Below are positions 38,200-46,673 of a DNA stretch of 64,000 nucleotides, one piece after another. The stretch is taken from contig CAVPEU010000026.1 of the NCBI GenBank assembly GCA_963703575.1, positions 65,850 to 129,849 on the forward strand. Direction: 5' to 3'. The first letter of the stretch is position 1, and each line of letters opens with the position of its first letter. The position numbers and the translations under genes are program-made. Under the pieces are notes generated by a model. It was given only the letters and a program-made list of their open reading frames with translations. It was not told the origin of the DNA and ran no database searches. The stretch comes from an uncultured Chloroflexia bacterium (GTDB lineage Bacteria; Chloroflexota; Limnocylindria; Limnocylindrales; CSP1-4).

Positions 38200-38667
38200 A
38201 TGCGTCTCGCTCGACTCGCCCCGCTCGCCATCGTCGCCGCCCTTGCCGCCGCCTGCTCCGGCGGCGGCGGAACCCCTGCCCCGGCAACCAGCGCTCCATC
38301 CGCCTCGGCCGAAGCGTCGGCAGCCACCACCCGCATCGAGGTCAGGCTCACCGACGCGCTGAAGATCGAGCCGGCGGCCATGACCGTGCCCGCAGGGCAG
38401 CCCATCACGTTCGTCGTCACCAACGCCGGCACGGGTCTTCACGAGTTCGTGCTCGGCGACGAGGCCGCCCAGGCCGATCACGAGCAGGAGATGGCGTCGG
38501 CGGGCGGGATGAGCATGCCGAACGACGAGGCGATGGCCATCGGCGTCGAGCCTGGCACGACCAGGGAGTTGACCGTCACGTTCGACGAGCCGGGCACGAT
38601 CCTCGCCGGCTGCCACGTCGCCGGGCATTACCCGGCCGGCATGAAGGCGACCATCGAGATCGAGTGA
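38200..38667 (+). CDS. Cupredoxin (type-1 blue copper) lipoprotein
   Basis: The lipobox is LAIVAALAAACSGG. The ligand set is H(LHEF)...C-x4-H-x4-M (GCHVAGHYPAGM). Confidence 0.7.
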   Translation: MRLARLAPLAIVAALAAACSGGGGTPAPATSAPSASAEASAATTRIEVRLTDALKIEPAAMTVPAGQPITFVVTNAGTGLHEFVLGDEAAQADHEQEMASAGGMSMPNDEAMAIGVEPGTTRELTVTFDEPGTILAGCHVAGHYPAGMKATIEIE

Positions 38668-39827
38668 CCAGGCTCCCCGGAATCCTTCCAGGCCTGGTTG
38701 GCCAGCCCGTGACGACCCTGCCGCCGGTACTCGGCGAACCCGTCGCCGTCCGCGTCGCCGTAGGTCAGCGCCCAGTCGAGGCAGCGCTCGACGGCGGGCA
38801 CCAGCCGTTCGACGGCATCGGGCGCCGTTCCCCAGCGATGGACCTCGGCCACGAGCGTGACGAACAACAGCGTGGCATCGATCGTGCCGTAATAGGCCCG
38901 ACCGAGGAACCCGCGCCGGACGGCGAGCGGCCCGGCTCGCAGCTCGTGGAGGATCTTGCCCGGCTCCTCGGCGCTGGCGCGGTCAACCCGGCTGCCCTGA
39001 TAGGCGGCCAGCACCTCGAGGCTGTCGGCGGCGAGCTCCGGCGCGAACGGCAGGGCCATGTACGCGGTGATCAGGGAGTCGCGTCCGAACAGCGCCATGA
39101 ACCACGGGATCCCGGCTGCCACGACAATCCGACTGGACCCGTCCGGGCTGGCCACCCGGAGCGCGCCCAGATCGGCGAGTGACCGCCGGTAGAGATGGCC
39201 GAGGGCGTCGTCGTTCGTGTCCATGGTCGGGAAGCCCGCCTGCCAGCGGCGTGACCGCTCGGCCATCGGGTTCTCGAGGAACCCGAATGCGTCACACCGG
39301 CAACGCGGTTCGTATGCGACGTCGTCGTGGACCGGGACGATGTCGATGCAGGTCCGCCACGTCTGGCGGATCGCCGCGCCGACCCTCCGGCGCGGTCCTC
39401 ACGCGACCAGCCGCTTGACCTCGAACAGATCGGCGAAGTCGGCGTTCAGCAGCACCCGAAGGTCCACCGCTGCCGGGTCGGAGCCGTGGTTCTCGACGAC
39501 GAGGTCCTCGTGGACGCCGTCGCCGATGAAGCGGCGTCGCTCGATGACGATCGGCGCCGCGTCCCCGTCCCCGCCCGCCGGTCGCAGGTAGATCCGCGCG
39601 GAGAACGCGTCGACCGTCCCGCCGGCGAGCAGGTCCGGCGGGCGCCCGTTGACCTCCAGCCGGAACCCGCTCAGGAACCGCGTGTCGCGGTAGAACAGCC
39701 CGTCGCCCGTGCCCGGTCGGACGTCGCCGAGCGGGTCGGCGATCATGAACGCGTCGCCCTCGACCACGGTGATCCCGGGCAAGCCCGGCAGGCGAGGCAC
39801 GTTGCCCCACGGATCGACCTGCGTCAT
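38628..39827 (-). pseudogene. Amylo-alpha-1,6-glucosidase (glycogen-debranching enzyme family) remnant: frameshifted and 3'-truncated
   Basis: The N-terminal-domain fragment 39399-39827 (GITVVEGDAFMIADPLGDV...) ends in a stop. The middle fragment 38628-39266 is in another frame and stops after the GLANQAWKDSGE motif, with about 250 expected C-terminal residues missing. The 3' end overlaps the convergent cupredoxin gene. Confidence 0.6.
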
Positions 39828-39837
39828 CGCAGCTCGA

Positions 39838-40620
39838 TCACGGGCGTCCGAGCGGCGGCCGGCCGGGCTTCGAAGAACGATCGGGCCGCGAAACGTCGTC
39901 ACGGCGCGATGTCGTCACGGCGCGACGCCGGCCCACCGTCGCGACGCCGTCCACCGTCGCCACGATCTCGCGCCAGACTCCCTCGCGGCGGACCGCGCTC
40001 AACGCCAGTCCGGCGGCCGTGACGTTCGCCTCGGTCCGCCGGTTCAGCTCGGGTCCCGCCAGACGTCGGGTCAGGGGGCTCACCAGGTCGGCCAGCCAGC
40101 CGCCCAGCCGATGGCTGGGCCGGACATGCTCGAGGAGCAGGACCTGGCCATCACGCTTGACCACCCGCCGCACCTCGGCGAGGGCGCGGACCGGATCGGC
40201 CACCGAGCAGAAGACGCACGCGGCCGCGACCGTATCGAACGTCTCGTCGGCGTACGGCAGCGCGTGGACGTCGGCGCGTTCGAGGCGGACGAGGAGGCCG
40301 AGCCGCGCGGCGCGCCGGCCGGCTCGCTCGAGCATGCGCCCGGACACGTCGATCCCGGTCAGGTTGACCCCCGGCGGGTAGTGCTCGAGGTTGCGCCCGG
40401 TGCCGATCCCCACCTCGAGGACCTCGCCGCGCGCCTGCGACAGGAGCCGGTGCCGGCGCTGGGCGCCACCAGCCCGCTCCATCGGGGCGTCGTACAGATC
40501 GTAGACGGCCGCGAGGCGCTCGTAGCGGCGGGTCACCCGGTCCTGCTCTGCGCTCCACGGACCGATCGCACGCGATCCGGTCCGCTGGTCTCCTGCGAGT
40601 GGAGCCTCAGGGTCGGGCAT
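39838..40620 (-). CDS. Class I SAM-dependent methyltransferase (UbiE/COQ5-like)
   Basis: VLEVGIGTGRNL is motif I. The post-I motif reads LPYADETFDTV. Confidence 0.7.
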   Translation of the reverse strand: MPDPEAPLAGDQRTGSRAIGPWSAEQDRVTRRYERLAAVYDLYDAPMERAGGAQRRHRLLSQARGEVLEVGIGTGRNLEHYPPGVNLTGIDVSGRMLERAGRRAARLGLLVRLERADVHALPYADETFDTVAAACVFCSVADPVRALAEVRRVVKRDGQVLLLEHVRPSHRLGGWLADLVSPLTRRLAGPELNRRTEANVTAAGLALSAVRREGVWREIVATVDGVATVGRRRAVTTSRRDDVSRPDRSSKPGRPPLGRP

Positions 40621-40801
40621 TTGTGACCGGATCCGGGAGGCGCGCAAAGAACGGACGGTCCTCGGCGAACTGCTCGTGGCAGGCGACGCTGCAGAAGGAG
40701 AACGTGCGTCCCTCGTAGTCCTCGGTGACAGCCACGTCCTCGGGCCGAATCCGCATCCCGCAGACCACGTCGACGATCAAGCCGGCCTTCCCACGGTTCA
40801 T
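40607..40801 (-). CDS. YHS/TRASH-domain metal-binding protein
   Basis: VVCGMRIRPEDVAVTEDYEGRTFSFCSVACHEQF. It lies downstream of the ATPase on the same strand. Confidence 0.6.
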   Translation of the reverse strand: MNRGKAGLIVDVVCGMRIRPEDVAVTEDYEGRTFSFCSVACHEQFAEDRPFFARLPDPVTNARP

Positions 40802-40964: not shown

Positions 40965-43148
40965 TCACTGCGGTCGCACCGCCGCCGTCTGCGGTCTCCG
41001 CTCGCCTGCGGGCTGCTCGGACGGGGCCCGGCGCAGGAGCCGCAGCCCGTTGGCGATGATGAGGATGGCGGTCCCCTCGTTGAGCAGGAGCCCCTCGGTG
41101 AGCGACAGCCAGCCCGCCAACGCGCCGGCGACCAGGAGGACGACCGTCGCGAGCGAGAGGGCGATGTTCTGGCGGATGTTGGCGAGCGTGCGGCGGGCGA
41201 GCCGGACCGCGGCCGGAAGCGCGGCAAGGTTGTCCGCCATGAGCGCCACATCGGCCGTTTCGAGTGCGACATCGGTGCCGGCGGCGCCCATCGCCACGCC
41301 GACGTCGGCGAGCGCCATCGACGGGGCGTCGTTCACGCCGTCTCCGACCATCGCGATCGTGCCGTGCTGGCGGCGGAGGGCCTCGACTGCGGCCGCCTTG
41401 TTCTCCGGCAGCAGCCCCGACCGCCACTCGGTGATGCCGACCGCCCGGGCGATCGCCTCGGCCGTCCGCTCGTTGTCGCCAGTCAGCATGACCAGCCGCT
41501 CGACGCCGAGCGAGCGCAGCTCGGCGATCACGTCTCCGGCTCCGTCGCGGAGCGCATCGGCGACCGCCAACAGGCCGATCGGTCCGTCCTCGGCGGCGAG
41601 GAGGACGGCCGTCTTGCCCTCCGCCTCGAGTCGGGCCAGCTCCTCCTGGACGCCATCGGGCAGGCTCGCGGCCCGCTCGCCAACCGGCCGCCCGACGAAC
41701 AGGCGCCGGCCGCCGAGGCTGGCCTCGACCCCGACGCCGGGGGTCGCCCGCAGCTCGGAGCCGGCCTCCAGCGGCAGCCCGCGCTGGCGGGCGGCGTCCA
41801 TGATCGCCGCCGCCAGGGGATGCTCGCTCGCAGCCTCGACCCCGGCCGCCAGGCGGAGGATCTCGTCGGGTGATCGGCCGTCGAGCGGCACGATGTCGGT
41901 GAGCGCTGGCTGCCCACGGGTGAGCGTGCCGGTCTTGTCGAAGGCCACGGCCCGCACGGCGGCGAGCCGCTCGAGGTAGACGCCGCCCTTGACGAGGATC
42001 CCGTCGCGCGCCGCCCGCGAGATCGCCGCCACGACCGAGACCGGAACCGAGATGACGAGCGCGCACGAGCACGACACGGTGAGGACCACGAGGCCGCGAT
42101 ACAGCCATTCGCGCAGGTCGGCGCCAAGCAGCGGCGGCACGACCGCGACGACCGCGGCGAGCACGAACATGGCCGGGGTGTAGACGGCGCCGAAGCGATC
42201 GGCGAACCGCTCGGCGCGACCCTTGGCCGCCTGGGCCTCCTCGACCTGGCGGATGATGCGGACGAGGGTCGTGTCCGCCCACTCCCTGGTCACTTCGATC
42301 TCGAGGGCGCCCGCGCCGTTGACGGTGCCGCCGAAGACGGCCGTCCCGGGCGCCACTTCGACCGGGATCGACTCGCCGGTGATCGGGCTCTGGTCGACCG
42401 AGGAAGTCCCCGACACGACCCGCCCGTCGGTCGGCAGGCGCTCACCCGGGCGCACGACGACGAGATCAGCCGGGACGAGCGTCTCGACCGGGACGAGCGT
42501 CGGCAGCGACCCCGGCGGGCCCTTGAGCAGGGCGACCGGCGGGGCGAGCGCCATCAGGGCGCGGATCGAGCCCCGGGCCCGGTCACTGACGTAGTCTTCG
42601 AGGACCTCGCCGAGCGAGAAGACGACGATGAGCGTCGCCGCCTCGCCGATGACCCCCAGGCCCACCGCCCCGAGCGTGGCCACGACCAGGAGGGTGGTGA
42701 TCGTCAGTCGCCGATCGCGGAGCGCCTGGAGCGCGCTCCGGAGCGGGTGGACGCCGGCCACCACGATCGTGGCCGTATACGGGACCAGGGCGACCTGCGG
42801 CAGGCCGAGCAGGTACTCGAATGCGAGCCCGACGAGGAGCAGCAGCGCTCCGGCGGCCAGGGCGAGGGACTTGGGCTGGCGCCACCAGGCCGGTTCGCCC
42901 TCCGCCGGCCGGCGGGCATCGGCCGGGGCGAGGCCAAGGCCGATCCGCCGGGCGGCTCGCTCGATCTGCTGGTCGGTGACCTGGCCGTCGTGCTCGACGC
43001 CGACGATCCCGGCGGCCTCGAAGACCTCGACCGACCGAACACCCGGGACCCGCAAGAGCGTCCCGGCCACGTCGCCCGCGCAGTCGAGGCACGAGCCGTC
43101 GACGACGCGATAGCGCCGGCGGGCGAGCGTAGACACCGGGGCACTCAT
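40965..43148 (-). CDS. Heavy-metal translocating P1B-type ATPase with atypical transmembrane metal-binding motifs
   Basis: An N-terminal CxxC domain (SCLDCAG), DKTGTLT, SEHPL and GDGVNDAP are present. TM6 reads SCSCAL in place of CPC, and TM8 reads NEGT in place of HEG. Confidence 0.9.
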
Positions 43149-43456
43149 GCCGCAGCGACCTTGCCGATGACCTCGGAGAGGTCGATCTCGTCGACGATCG
43201 CGGTCAGCTCGTCGCAGTAGTCGCACAGGCCCGGGCAGGCCTGGACGCGAGCCGTGAGCTCGCGCGTCAGCTGCTCGCGGGCGCTCTCCTCCAGGGCAAG
43301 CCGCAGCGCCCGGTCGGTCCCGGCGCGCATCGCCCGGAGCTGGATGACGACGTCCACGCTCGACGATCCGGTGTCGAGCATCCGCCCGAGGCCCTCCGCC
43401 TGCCCGCGGAGGTAGTTGACCTGGTTGCGCAGTTTGCGAGGCGGTTGCTGGGCCAT
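43145..43456 (-). CDS. CsoR/RcnR-family (DUF156) metal-sensing repressor-like protein, atypical
   Basis: [43 protein letters not shown] fits the CsoR helical scaffold. The stop overlaps the ATPase start (ATGA). The canonical Cys/His sensing positions appear replaced, and the C-terminus reads [11 protein letters not shown]. Confidence 0.75.
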
Positions 43457-43508
43457 GGGTGAGGCTCCGTTTCTCCTGTTTCGACACCCCCTGGGGGTGT
43501 CTACGTGA

Positions 43509-43883
43509 AGCGTACCAGACGAGCCCCACTCGCGGAACCGACCGCAACCCGCGCCGATCTCGATCTTCGCGGGCTTCCTCGGCGTGGGTCCCGGTTTCCT
43601 CCTGATGCCGACCCTCACCCTGATCGGGTACAGCGCCCGCCTCGCCGCCGCGACGAACTCGGTGGCGGTCACGCTGCCGTCGTTCTCCGCCTTCATCAGC
43701 CACCTGCCGACGGCCACCTTCGACTGGCCGCTCGTGATCGTGACGTCGATCGCGGCGGTCATCGGCTCCTGGTTCGGCGCCCGCTTCACGGCCGGTCGGG
43801 TCAAGTCTGCCGCCCTGTCGCGCATCTTCGCGATCGCGCTCGTCGCGCTCGCCGTGCAGCGCGCCTGGATCCTCGTCTCATGA
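43509..43883 (+). CDS. TauE/SafE (DUF81)-family membrane protein, half-size or 5'-truncated
   Basis: [18 protein letters not shown] is the GxGGG repeat motif. Only about 125 aa lie in frame after a stop at 43506, and the first possible start is GTG 43584. It is divergent from the CsoR-like gene. Confidence 0.4.
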
Positions 43884-43917: not shown

Positions 43918-44262
43918 ATGAGGAGACCTTCCATGCGAACTGAGCTTCCGGTCCTCCAGGACCTGCGGATGAGCCTCCCCGCCCCCGACGTGAACGACGC
44001 GACAGCGACCGCTTCGCTCCTGGCCGACCCGATCCGGGCCAGCATCGTGCGGATGCTCCGCGACGGCCCCGTCTGCGTGTGCGAGATGGCCGCCGCCCTC
44101 GGCGCGCGCGAAAACAACGTCAGCAACCATCTCGCCCGGCTCCGCGACGCGGGCCTCGTGCGCGCGAGCCGGTACGGCGCGGACTCACGGCGCGCCTACT
44201 ACGAGCGCGACGATGCGGCATGTCGCCGGGCGCTCGAAGCGCTGGGAGACTTGCTCGGATAG
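43918..44262 (+). CDS. ArsR/SmtB-family metalloregulator
   Basis: LADPIRASIVRMLRDGPVCVCEMAAALGARENNVSNHLARLRDAGLV. Confidence 0.8.
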   Translation: MRRPSMRTELPVLQDLRMSLPAPDVNDATATASLLADPIRASIVRMLRDGPVCVCEMAAALGARENNVSNHLARLRDAGLVRASRYGADSRRAYYERDDAACRRALEALGDLLG

Positions 44263-44319: not shown

Positions 44320-44556
44320 ATGAAGAAGATCGAGGTCCTGGGGCCAGGCTGCCACAACTGCCATCTCCTGGAGGAGGCCGCGAGGGAGGCCGTTGCGATG
44401 GCGGGGGTCGAGGCAGAGATCCTGCACGTCACCGATGTCGCCCGCATCGCGAGCTATGGCGTGATGCGCACGCCCGGCCTGGTCATCGACGGCAAGGTGG
44501 TCAGCGCGGGGCGCATCCCCTCCGCAGGCGACATCGTGGTCTGGCTGACCGAGTAG
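44320..44556 (+). CDS. Small thioredoxin-fold protein (redox-active disulfide protein 2-like)
   Basis: GPGCHNCH is a CxxC motif, in a roughly 78 aa Trx-like fold. Confidence 0.7.
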   Translation: MKKIEVLGPGCHNCHLLEEAAREAVAMAGVEAEILHVTDVARIASYGVMRTPGLVIDGKVVSAGRIPSAGDIVVWLTE

Positions 44557-45101: not shown

Positions 45102-45278
45102 CCGCGAGTGTGAGCGCCTGGCGGATCAGCGGTGGACACGGTGCACCCCCGCATTCTCCGCCCGCCGAGGACGACCGAATGGGGCATTCGACCCACTCCC
45201 CCGTCCCGTGGGGCGCGTGATACGCTTCGCGCCCTTCGTGCGGTGCGCCCAGTCCCGCACGTGACGTCGAGCCCGGGA

Positions 45279-46673
45279 ATGCCCGACCAGACCAGACGAC
45301 CGAATCCGGGGCAGCTCGCCCTCGAGCTGCCGAGCACGCTTCCCAGCCTCGGGATGGAGCTGGAGTGGAAGGCGCAGGCCCGCCTGTGGGGCCCGAGCCT
45401 CCACCCGATGTGCTCCTACCTCGCGAGCTTCCCCGCCGCGCTCGCGCATGCTTTCATCGCCCGCTACAGCCGATCGGGCGACGTGGTCCTGGACCCGTTC
45501 TCCGGCCGCGGCACGACGCCGCTCCAGGCCGTCGCGGAGGGCCGCATCGGCGTCGGCAACGACCTCAACCCGTTCGCCCACCTCCTCACGGCGGCCAAGG
45601 TCCAGCCGGCCACGCCCGCGGAGACGCGCACCCGGCTCGCCGCGCTCCGCCTCGCCTGGGCCGCCGACGCCGCCGCCTGGCTCGCCCTCGGCGAGCGCGT
45701 GGTCGCGCGCCCGCGTCACCCGTCGGCACGCGTGCCCGCGCCCGGCAGCGGCGACGGCCCGGACGCCCGCACCGAGACGGTCCCGGACGAGGTGGCCCTC
45801 GCGTTCCACCCGCGGACCCTGGGCCAGCTGCTGTTCGTGCGGTCCCGGCTGCGGCTGGACGATCGCACGGACCGGTTCCTGGCCGGGGCGGTGGCCGGGA
45901 TCCTGCACGGGAAGACGCCGTCCTACCTGTCCACCGTGATGCCCAACACGTTCAGCATGGCCCCACGCTACGTCCGGGATTTCGTGGCCCGGACCGGCTT
46001 CGAGTCCCCGGAGCGCGACGTGTTCGACGCCCTGTCCGCCAAGTTGGACCGGCTCTACCGCCAGGCTCTGCCCGCGACGGGCGGGCTCGCGCTCCTGGGC
46101 GACGCGCGGACGGCCGGACGCCGGGCGCGCACGGCCCTGCGGGCGCGCGGCCTCCCCGACCGCGCCCGGCTCATCGTCACCTCACCGCCGTACCTGCGCG
46201 TGCTCAAGTACGGCTATTACAACTGGCTGCGGACATGGTTCCTGGGCTTCGACGCGCAGGCCATCGATACCGCCCTCGACGACGCGCACCAGCGCGAGCC
46301 CTACCTCGTGTTCCTGCGCGAGGTCCTGGCCGACCTCCGGCCGGCGCTCACGGACGACGGGATCGCGGTGCTCGTGATCGGCGATGTCGAGACCGACCGG
46401 GGCAAGCCGTCGGACATCGGCCTCGACCTGGCCGAGCGCGTGTGGGAGGAGGCCGCCTACCCCGCCGGGTACCGGCTGGCGGGCCTGGTGCGTGACGAGA
46501 TCGCCGCCAACCGCAAGATGACCCGCCTGTGGGGCGAGCAGGCCGGGCGGGCGACCAAGACCGATCGCATCCTGGTGCTGGGCGCGACCGAGGCCGGGCG
46601 CCGGCGGGCGCTTGCCGCCGCCGACCTGCCGATCGACTGGTCGTGGCCGCCGACGAGGCTTCGCGCGATCTGA
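45279..46673 (+). CDS. DNA (N4-cytosine/N6-adenine) methyltransferase, no cognate restriction gene apparent
   Basis: The AdoMet motif I block SGDVVLDPFSGRGTTPLQAVAEGRIGVGNDLNPFAHL lies near the N-terminus. The catalytic motif IV LIVTSPPY lies about 250 aa downstream, so the motif order is permuted relative to typical PF01555 beta-class enzymes. The start is uncertain (Met at 45132/45279/45354). Confidence 0.7.
   Translation: MPDQTRRPNPGQLALELPSTLPSLGMELEWKAQARLWGPSLHPMCSYLASFPAALAHAFIARYSRSGDVVLDPFSGRGTTPLQAVAEGRIGVGNDLNPFAHLLTAAKVQPATPAETRTRLAALRLAWAADAAAWLALGERVVARPRHPSARVPAPGSGDGPDARTETVPDEVALAFHPRTLGQLLFVRSRLRLDDRTDRFLAGAVAGILHGKTPSYLSTVMPNTFSMAPRYVRDFVARTGFESPERDVFDALSAKLDRLYRQALPATGGLALLGDARTAGRRARTALRARGLPDRARLIVTSPPYLRVLKYGYYNWLRTWFLGFDAQAIDTALDDAHQREPYLVFLREVLADLRPALTDDGIAVLVIGDVETDRGKPSDIGLDLAERVWEEAAYPAGYRLAGLVRDEIAANRKMTRLWGEQAGRATKTDRILVLGATEAGRRRALAAADLPIDWSWPPTRLRAI

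Follow-up and report, generated by a model that had tools for sequence, protein, structure and literature searches.

The window analysed here is a 64-kb stretch of DNA from an uncultured Chloroflexia bacterium, with a G+C content of about 73% throughout. It carries on its minus strand a pair of adjacent genes that encode a predicted metal-efflux system, a regulator of 103 amino acids (43456-43145) followed by a P1B ATPase of 727 amino acids (43148-40965). The TGA stop codon of the regulator gene sits within the ATG start codon of the pump gene, giving a 4-bp overlap that reads ATGA. A first-pass annotation, made from the letters of the DNA, had given the span 40965-43456 and an overlap of the two genes, and both were confirmed. 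The regulator-pump pair is kept with the same overlap in the related loci L001, L002, L008, L090, L092 and L093. The features of the pair and of its upstream region are:

43484..43500, no strand assigned: candidate operator, the perfect palindrome ACACCCC-N3-GGGGTGT (sequence match and conservation)
43145..43456, minus strand: predicted CsoR/RcnR-family repressor, 103 amino acids (Pfam, PDB profile matches, AlphaFold2, Foldseek and alignment)
43214..43237, minus strand: regulator codons for C74-P-G-L-C78-D-Y-C81, the proposed sensing site (invariant in 33 relatives)
40965..43148, minus strand: predicted P1B heavy-metal ATPase of the CSC (P1B-7) type, 727 amino acids (Pfam, NCBIfam and alignments)
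42924..43115, minus strand: N-terminal HMA-like domain of the pump, residues ~12-75, with C20-L-D-C23 (Pfam HMA, E 3.8e-4)
43091-43080, minus strand: pump codons for C20-L-D-C23
42063..42074, minus strand: pump codons for S359-C360-S361-C362, the transmembrane metal-site motif (aligned to ZntA and sCoaT)
41070..41081, minus strand: pump codons for N690-E691-G692-T693 in the last transmembrane helix (aligned to ZntA and sCoaT)

On the coding strand, 27 nt separate the end of the palindrome ACACCCCCTGGGGGTGT (43484-43500) from the regulator ATG downstream of it. This palindrome occurs once in the 64-kb window, where 0.02 matches would be expected. ACACCCC-N3-GGGGTGT with 0-1 mismatch lies 20-31 nt before the regulator start in L001, L002, L008, L090, L092 and L093, and the position is conserved in all seven related loci, the window included. 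One unrelated match, with 2 mismatches, was found in 777 kb of locus DNA. The C-tract/G-tract architecture is the same as that of the S. mitis cst operator ATATACCCTTATGGGGTATAT (PMC8643695). The palindrome is a candidate operator, with an architecture that would be right for a family that binds G/C tracts. No sigma-70-like promoter was found in a promoter/terminator scan, which is uninformative at 73% GC.

The regulator scored 37.9 bits against Pfam PF02583 (Trns_repr_metal; cutoff 22.8), and a profile of 33 relatives (63-98% identity) matched InrS, M. tuberculosis CsoR, CstR and FrmR in PDB. An AlphaFold2 (AF2) model of the monomer, built from the shallow alignment of these 33 sequences, has a predicted local distance difference test score (pLDDT) of 84 and helices at residues 5-28, 33-73, 78-90 and 94-102. 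All of the 20 top Foldseek matches of this model in PDB were CsoR-family structures, and the R-x-x-G-Q motif of helix 1 is kept around G18-Q19. Both PF02583 membership and the all-helical protomer are as expected of the CsoR/RcnR family, and the fold proposed for the upstream gene in the first-pass annotation is borne out by the Pfam, PDB profile, AF2 and Foldseek results.

The ligand positions of the regulator differ from those of characterised members. In the profile alignments with InrS and M. tuberculosis CsoR, the X, Y and Z columns are occupied by Ser33, Ser58 and Gln62, and a multiple alignment that includes canonical members agrees. The first-pass annotation had read the positions of Cu-CsoR Cys36/His61/Cys65 as Ser/Glu/Gln; the loss of the ligands and the Ser and Gln were correct, but the Y residue is Ser58, one residue off. 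These residues do not provide the x-C-H-C ligands of Cu(I)-CsoR. The H-C-H-H or H-C-H-C sites of RcnR and InrS are also missing, as the regulator lacks an N-terminal His and has neither Cys nor His at X, Y or Z, and the RcnR equivalog scored 16.7 bits (cutoff 138). FrmR has Pro2 and a Cys at X (P-C-H-x), where the regulator has Ala at residue 2 and Ser at X (FrmR equivalog 19.2 bits, cutoff 133). The x-C-x-C dithiol of CstR, at X and Z, is likewise replaced by Ser33 and Gln62.

The conserved cysteines of the regulator are found elsewhere. The motif C74-P-G-L-C78-D-Y-C81 is invariant in the 33 relatives and begins 12 residues past the canonical Z position, at the turn between helix 2 and helix 3 (residues 74-81 of 103). 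The first-pass annotation had noticed this cysteine cluster, which is conserved and likely to be a replacement sensor, but had put it at the C-terminus and not at the turn. From the AF2 helix boundaries, Cys74 would cap a lengthened helix 2, and Cys78 and Cys81 would begin helix 3. The regulator shares with CsoR, the Cu(I) repressor of copA-type operons in M. tuberculosis, B. subtilis and S. lividans, its Pfam family, the helical fold, the helix 1 motif, a palindromic C-tract/G-tract operator (a candidate here) and a gene position directly upstream of a P1B ATPase. It differs in having Ser/Ser/Gln in place of the ligands Cys/His/Cys, and its helix 2 appears to be about 8 residues longer, as judged from the AF2 boundaries and the Pfam alignment. 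This helix ends in CPGxCxxC, which is absent from the canonical members aligned, and the partner pump is outside the Cu(I) class. On sequence, the predicted repressor represents a novel variant within the CsoR/RcnR family, in which a conserved cysteine site has been relocated.

A search with the regulator profile of 1.84 billion representative proteins gave 123 matches. The upper ~45 mostly have the same architecture with a CPGxC core, and some are without the motif altogether; the lower matches are ordinary C...H...C proteins. In the proteins with CPGxC, the canonical columns hold neither Cys nor His, and a few of these proteins have incidental residues of this kind elsewhere. The third Cys is present in some members (CPGECDYC, CPGACDYC, CPGPCQRC, CVGQCEFC and others) and absent in others (CPGNCG..., CPGDCQD...). 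Two proteins of the two-cysteine CPGNC branch, P0175 and P0222, have a C-terminal HMA domain with MxCxxC; we know of no reported fusion between a CsoR-family protein and an HMA domain. A copy on a Hymenobacter plasmid (locus L097) precedes a glutaredoxin gene and lies near a CzcA-type pump. As far as the alignments indicate, the CPGxC(xxC) proteins form a wider clade, which is apparently uncharacterised.

The C-x3-C-x2-C spacing of CPGLCDYC, with an aromatic residue before its third Cys, is the same as that of radical-SAM (S-adenosylmethionine) [4Fe-4S] motifs. Three invariant cysteines with this arrangement could hold an iron-sulfur cluster, and destruction of the cluster by thiophilic metals, oxygen or nitric oxide would then derepress the pump. 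This explanation is very improbable. The wider clade, which includes the two-cysteine CPGNC variants, does not keep the aromatic residue or the third Cys, and neither a fourth ligand nor iron-sulfur assembly genes are evident.

A thiol-reactive sensor of persulfides, electrophiles or oxidants, in which the cysteines would form di- or polysulfide links, is suggested by the presence of CstR and FrmR in the CsoR family. Rhodanese genes lie downstream of the pair in L090, L092 and L093, and glutaredoxin or thioredoxin-like genes are near it in L092, near the Hymenobacter copy in L097 and in the window (44320-44556). However, the x-C-x-C of CstR and the Pro2/Cys features of FrmR are absent from the regulator, and the window has no rhodanese gene. 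The sole conserved regulated gene is a heavy-metal ATPase that is translationally coupled to the regulator, and fusions to HMA domains in the wider clade speak for metal binding. We therefore consider such a sensor a poor prospect. The first-pass annotation had proposed an efflux module with unassigned metal or thiol-reactive specificity. The efflux module with an unassigned substrate is supported, but the thiol-reactive part is disfavoured by the heavy-metal ATPase target, by the HMA fusions and by the metal-sensing regulators (ArsR/SmtB or CadR-like MerR) or CDF/RND clusters that accompany relatives of the pump.

The pump matched the Pfam domains E1-E2_ATPase and Hydrolase (HAD hydrolase domain), and it scored 589 bits against TIGR01525, the NCBIfam model of heavy-metal P-type ATPases (cutoff 346). 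The catalytic hallmarks of P1B ATPases were taken as the DKTGT phosphorylation site, the TGES actuator loop, the GDGxNDxP hinge and the HP motif of the nucleotide domain. ITGES, the phosphorylation site at FD404 and SEHPLA are legible in the sequence, and these catalytic motifs together with TIGR01525 place the pump among the P-type ATPases of the P1B group, as the first-pass annotation had it. The Cd/Zn subfamily model TIGR01512 scored 503 bits, above its cutoff of 313.5, and the Cu subfamily model TIGR01511 scored 374 bits, below its cutoff of 397. Scores against the ZntA equivalog models were 574 and 514 bits (cutoffs 1005 and 1240) and against the CopA equivalog 331 bits (cutoff 1316). The best matches in PDB were ZntA (437 bits), sCoaT (412 bits) and CopA (329 bits), in this order.

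The CSC helix of the pump is transmembrane helix 4 (TM4) in the six-helix core numbering and TM6 in the eight-helix numbering; the former is used below. Alignment with Shigella ZntA (4UMV) places C360-S-C362 on CPC, Glu691 on Asp714 and a Val on Lys693, and alignment with sCoaT (7QBZ) places CSC on SPC and NEGT on HEGS. These two alignments show that the SCSC and NEGT motifs of the first-pass annotation had been assigned in register. SCSC is present in all of the 120 best homologues of the pump (57-100% identity, from a large protein collection), and (L)NE(G/A)(S/T) in about 100 of them, with NE(G/A) reported as common to all. A CxxC lies within the first 80 residues in 109 of the 120 and is CLDC in 74. 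N690, E691, Q660 and N661 are at least 97% conserved in the alignment of the pump family. The conservation of SCSC, NE and CxxC in these homologues indicates that the motifs are family features, neither peculiar to a single sequence nor due to chance. The N-terminal CxxC domain that had been noticed at first also stands, with C20-L-D-C23, though its HMA match (residues 14-58) is 21.2 bits and so under the Pfam cutoff of 24.8.

The pump does not have the signatures of the Zn/Cd, Co/Zn or Cu(I) groups. It has in common with ZntA/CadA (P1B-2) the eight-helix topology, an N-terminal domain that contains CxxC and an acidic residue, a last-helix carboxylate where ZntA has Asp714, and a TIGR01512 score above cutoff. 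In contrast to P1B-2 pumps, it has CSC for CPC, so that the near-universal Pro is lost, Val for the TM5 Lys (K693) and Glu preceded by Asn for the TM6 Asp (D714), and its equivalog scores are far below the cutoffs. The E-G-(S/T) core of the last helix is shared with the Co(II)/Zn(II) pumps sCoaT/CtpD (P1B-4, 7QBZ), but the SPC of TM4 is CSC in the window, the His of HEGxT in TM6 is Asn (NEGT), and the pump has the N-terminal CxxC domain. Cu(I) pumps of P1B-1 have CPC in TM4, YN in TM5 and MxxSS in TM6. In the pump, TM5 reads RQNIALSL and TM6 reads LNEGT; there is no CPC, and both TIGR01511 and the CopA equivalog are under their cutoffs.

The CSC tripeptide in the TM4 metal-site helix defines the P1B-7 class, as the definition is given in later papers (PMC13460109, PMC7558416, and PMC4932525, citing Smith, Smith and Rosenzweig 2014). 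By the definition in PMC13460109, C360-S-C362 of the pump is this signature, and by its motif the pump therefore belongs to a class that has been named but not characterised. The first-pass annotation had implied that the transmembrane motif lies outside the known subclasses while allowing that the pump might prove to fit one of them. The first claim did not hold and the second outcome was found, as far as the CSC definition of these papers goes, although P1B-7 itself has no characterised member. The P1B-7 substrate is listed as unknown in Table 4 of PMC7558416, no member of P1B-6 or P1B-7 had been examined biochemically at the time of PMC4932525, and reviews from 2016 to 2026 (PMC4932525, PMC7558416, PMC13460109) give P1B-7 no biochemically examined member and no assigned substrate. 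The pump shares with the subgroup the CSC in TM4, the full P-type catalytic core and the unassigned substrate, and no difference was detected in a comparison on CSC as the later papers define it. A literature search on CSC-motif ATPases yielded only the 2026 review, and a CsoR-type partner of a P1B-7 pump was not found in the literature searched on P1B-7 or the CsoR family.

The regulator is rare. A scan with strict patterns (CPGLCDYC), which misses distant relatives, found it in 2 of 185,579 species-representative genomes, labelled as Anaerolinea sp. or Chloroflexi-type metagenome-assembled genomes, and in both it overlaps a CSC pump directly. CsoR-type genes lie upstream only of pumps with identities of about 75% and above. 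In a metagenome scan based on a CSC-specific alignment, 30 non-redundant CSC loci had a 5' flank, with the following regulators:

16 of 30 loci: ArsR/SmtB immediately upstream, co-directional
2 of 30 loci: ArsR/SmtB farther upstream
2 of 30 loci: MerR downstream
2 of 30 loci: CsoR-type upstream
8 of 30 loci: none recognised

Many of these ArsR proteins are rich in Cys, with an N-terminal Cys, LCVTDL and DPCVxxLLxLxxC. The MerR proteins are closest to CadR, MerR and PbrR and have a Cys aligned to Cys77 of CadR; CueR is a much weaker match. The eight loci without a recognised regulator are low-GC, and their pumps are surrounded by a CDF transporter, an outer-membrane factor, a CusB/CzcB-type adaptor and UPF0060 (Pfam labels CDF, OEP, HlyD_D23 and UPF0060). 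One of the eight, L048, has a DtxR-like regulator (Fe_dep_repr_C and FeoA) directly upstream of the pump. Cultured carriers of CSC pumps (58% identity) include plasmids of Micrococcus luteus, Dietzia and Cellulosimicrobium, which also bear a divergent ArsR gene and insertion sequence (IS) elements, and several CSC loci are flanked by integrase and relaxase genes. CadC-like regulators in L072, L076 and L077 were discarded as evidence, since their pumps carry CPC and not CSC. The data show a regulator swap, from ArsR/SmtB to CsoR-type, on an otherwise conserved pump. ArsR/SmtB and MerR regulators hold the equivalent position beside other CSC pumps, and CmtR/CadC (ArsR/SmtB) and CadR/PbrR (MerR) resemble the regulator in that Cys-only or Cys-rich sites control Zn/Cd/Pb-type P1B pumps. 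Their folds and DNA-binding modes are unrelated, however, and the likeness is functional only.

Among the low-GC metagenome contigs, L056, L064 and L067 carry CSC pumps of 42-48% identity with the motif VVSCSCGI in czc-like clusters. These clusters consist of an outer-membrane factor, UPF0060/YnfA, a 200-amino-acid lipoprotein without a Pfam match, the pump, a His-rich CusB/CzcB-type adaptor and CDF.

The substrate of the pump is most likely a divalent, thiophilic metal ion such as Cd(II), Pb(II) or Zn(II). This is suggested by the similarity, which is closest to Zn/Cd/Pb pumps, by the conserved Glu at the Asp714 position, by the failure of the Cu-class model and by the types of regulator and transporter found with other CSC pumps. 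Several points weigh against a divalent-metal operon of this kind. The identity of the metal is purely what we infer from these comparisons, and a three-thiolate site would suit Cu(I), Hg(II) and As(III) too. The CsoR family is dominated by Cu(I) sensors that regulate P1B ATPases (PMC8643695). Cupredoxin, SCO1/SenC and rhodanese genes are present at loci of the close clade, and the window has cupredoxin (38200-38667) and YHS genes. The monomeric AF2 model from a shallow alignment and the HMA match under the cutoff also count on this side.

The same neighbouring genes, the dominance of Cu(I) sensors in the family and the CsoR type of the candidate operator would fit a Cu(I)/Ag(I) efflux operon, in which the pump would export Cu(I) and the three-Cys site would bind it in trigonal geometry, as a different site does in canonical CsoR. 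We consider this unlikely. The pump is without the transmembrane residues of the Cu(I) class and without CPC, TIGR01511 remains under its cutoff while the Cd/Zn model passes its own, and Glu is conserved at the Asp714 position of ZntA. Relatives of the pump pair with CadR-like MerR proteins that bear the divalent-sensor Cys and match CueR much more weakly. In addition, the copper-related neighbours, like the rhodanese genes, are not conserved with the operon, as seen in the related loci and by tblastn of the window.

A divalent-metal operon would work as follows, and our data make it probable that this is an autoregulated, translationally coupled two-gene system for metal efflux. The regulator, presumably as a tetramer like its relatives, would bind ACACCCC-N3-GGGGTGT upstream of its own start and repress transcription of both the regulator and the pump. 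The effector would be sensed by C74, C78 and C81, with Asp79 and Asp82 nearby, at the turn between the elongated helix 2 and helix 3, and metal at the three cysteines would free the regulator from DNA. The P1B-7-type pump would then export the metal from the cytoplasm through a transmembrane site that may be built from Cys360, Cys362, Asn690 and Glu691, with the CxDC domain at its N-terminus. In this lineage, the CsoR-type regulator would have taken over from the ArsR/SmtB type, under whose control most other CSC pumps stand.

A wider reading is tentative, and we hold it at somewhat less than an even chance. The CPGxC(xxC) proteins may be a distinct sensory clade of the CsoR/RcnR family, whose effector site would have moved from the inter-subunit X-Y-Z position to the cysteine cluster at the turn of helix 2 and helix 3. 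The window protein might then be the first Cd/Pb/Zn-type sensor of the family, and the operon the first direct route to a P1B-7 substrate. In this connection, a similarity network of the CsoR family leaves clusters 6-9 uncharacterised (PMC8643695).

Downstream of the pump on the same strand, at a distance of 164 bp, lies a further small gene:

40607..40801, minus strand: YHS/TRASH-domain protein, 64 amino acids (Pfam YHS 32.7 bits, cutoff 30.3)

It encodes a possible accessory metal-binding protein specific to the window locus. It was rejected as a conserved third gene of the operon, as no related locus has it beside the pump. A class I SAM methyltransferase gene (39838-40647, minus strand) follows it, with an annotated TTG start that overlaps the end of the YHS gene. 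Similar methyltransferases occur near CSC pumps or CPGxC regulators in L004, L009, L092 and L094, and the L092 protein has 36% identity to the window copy. About 2 kb from the pump, a gene at 38200-38667 (plus strand) encodes a secreted cupredoxin-like protein (Cupredoxin_1, Copper-bind). Cupredoxin genes are also near the operon in L008 and L090, and tblastn with those gave no match in the window. Two open reading frames at 38628-39266 and 39399-39902 (both minus strand, in different frames) together look like a disrupted gene of the glycogen-debranching type; GDE_N_bis matches the 39399-39902 frame, and the 38628-39266 frame resembles the next part of the enzyme by eye only.

Upstream of the regulator, a 99-amino-acid open reading frame at 43584-43883 (plus strand) matches only the C-terminal part of TauE/SafE (profile positions 146-236 of 237). 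Its missing 5' part would fall where the regulator gene sits, which suggests that the regulator-pump module interrupted a TauE gene or took the place of part of it. Together with the apparently disrupted debranching-type gene, this fragment gives the region from 38 to 44.6 kb the appearance of a mosaic of inserted genes related to metals. An ArsR/SmtB regulator with a CVC motif (GPVCVCEM) is encoded at 43918-44262 (plus strand), followed at 44320-44556 (plus strand) by a thioredoxin-like protein of the MTH895/ArsE family with CHNC. This pair is divergent from the pump operon. In L002, an ArsR gene is just upstream of the CsoR-type gene. A 513-amino-acid open reading frame at 45132-46673 (plus strand) has an N6_N4_Mtase DNA-methylase domain, which fits a mobile or defence-related neighbourhood.

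Some related loci have additional genes. A membrane-anchored protein of 221-234 amino acids without a Pfam match, encoded in L092 (3465-4169), L093 (3985-4689) and L090 (7217-7882), has the conserved His motifs YHIHA and SPxHTHD and is absent from the window; in L092 and L093 its start overlaps the pump stop. This His-rich protein, rhodanese, cupredoxin, SCO1 and DUF1573 were rejected as parts of the system in the window, where tblastn found none of them. A protein of about 391-396 amino acids with MtrA and PterinBD-DUF4346 domains recurs in L004 (1410-6247), L005 and L010, and in L094 (1365-2953) and L095. The order in L004, L005 and L010 is ArsR, MtrA/DUF4346, a 136-amino-acid unknown protein, DsbD_TM, the CSC pump and SAM methyltransferases. 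In L094 and L095, a low-GC CPGECDYC regulator (P0156) is directly upstream of the MtrA/DUF4346 gene. No mention of DUF4346 was found in the literature searched; these loci would associate a corrinoid-type methyltransferase with thiophilic-metal export.

Nothing in the locus is categorically new; the operon is a clean route to the substrate of P1B-7 pumps and to sensing outside the W-X-Y-Z site. For finding the inducer of a P1B-7 pump, and hence its substrate, the simplest system is a compact operon that has its own repressor and a clear candidate operator. The locus also documents the swap of an ArsR/SmtB regulator for a CsoR-type one on an otherwise conserved pump. The W-X-Y-Z ligand model explains the effector specificity of the CsoR/RcnR family and was called "remarkably resilient" in a 2024 review (PMC11672702). 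A clade without W-X-Y-Z ligands but with another invariant Cys motif would extend this model, and would illustrate how one DNA-binding scaffold can acquire a new sensing site.

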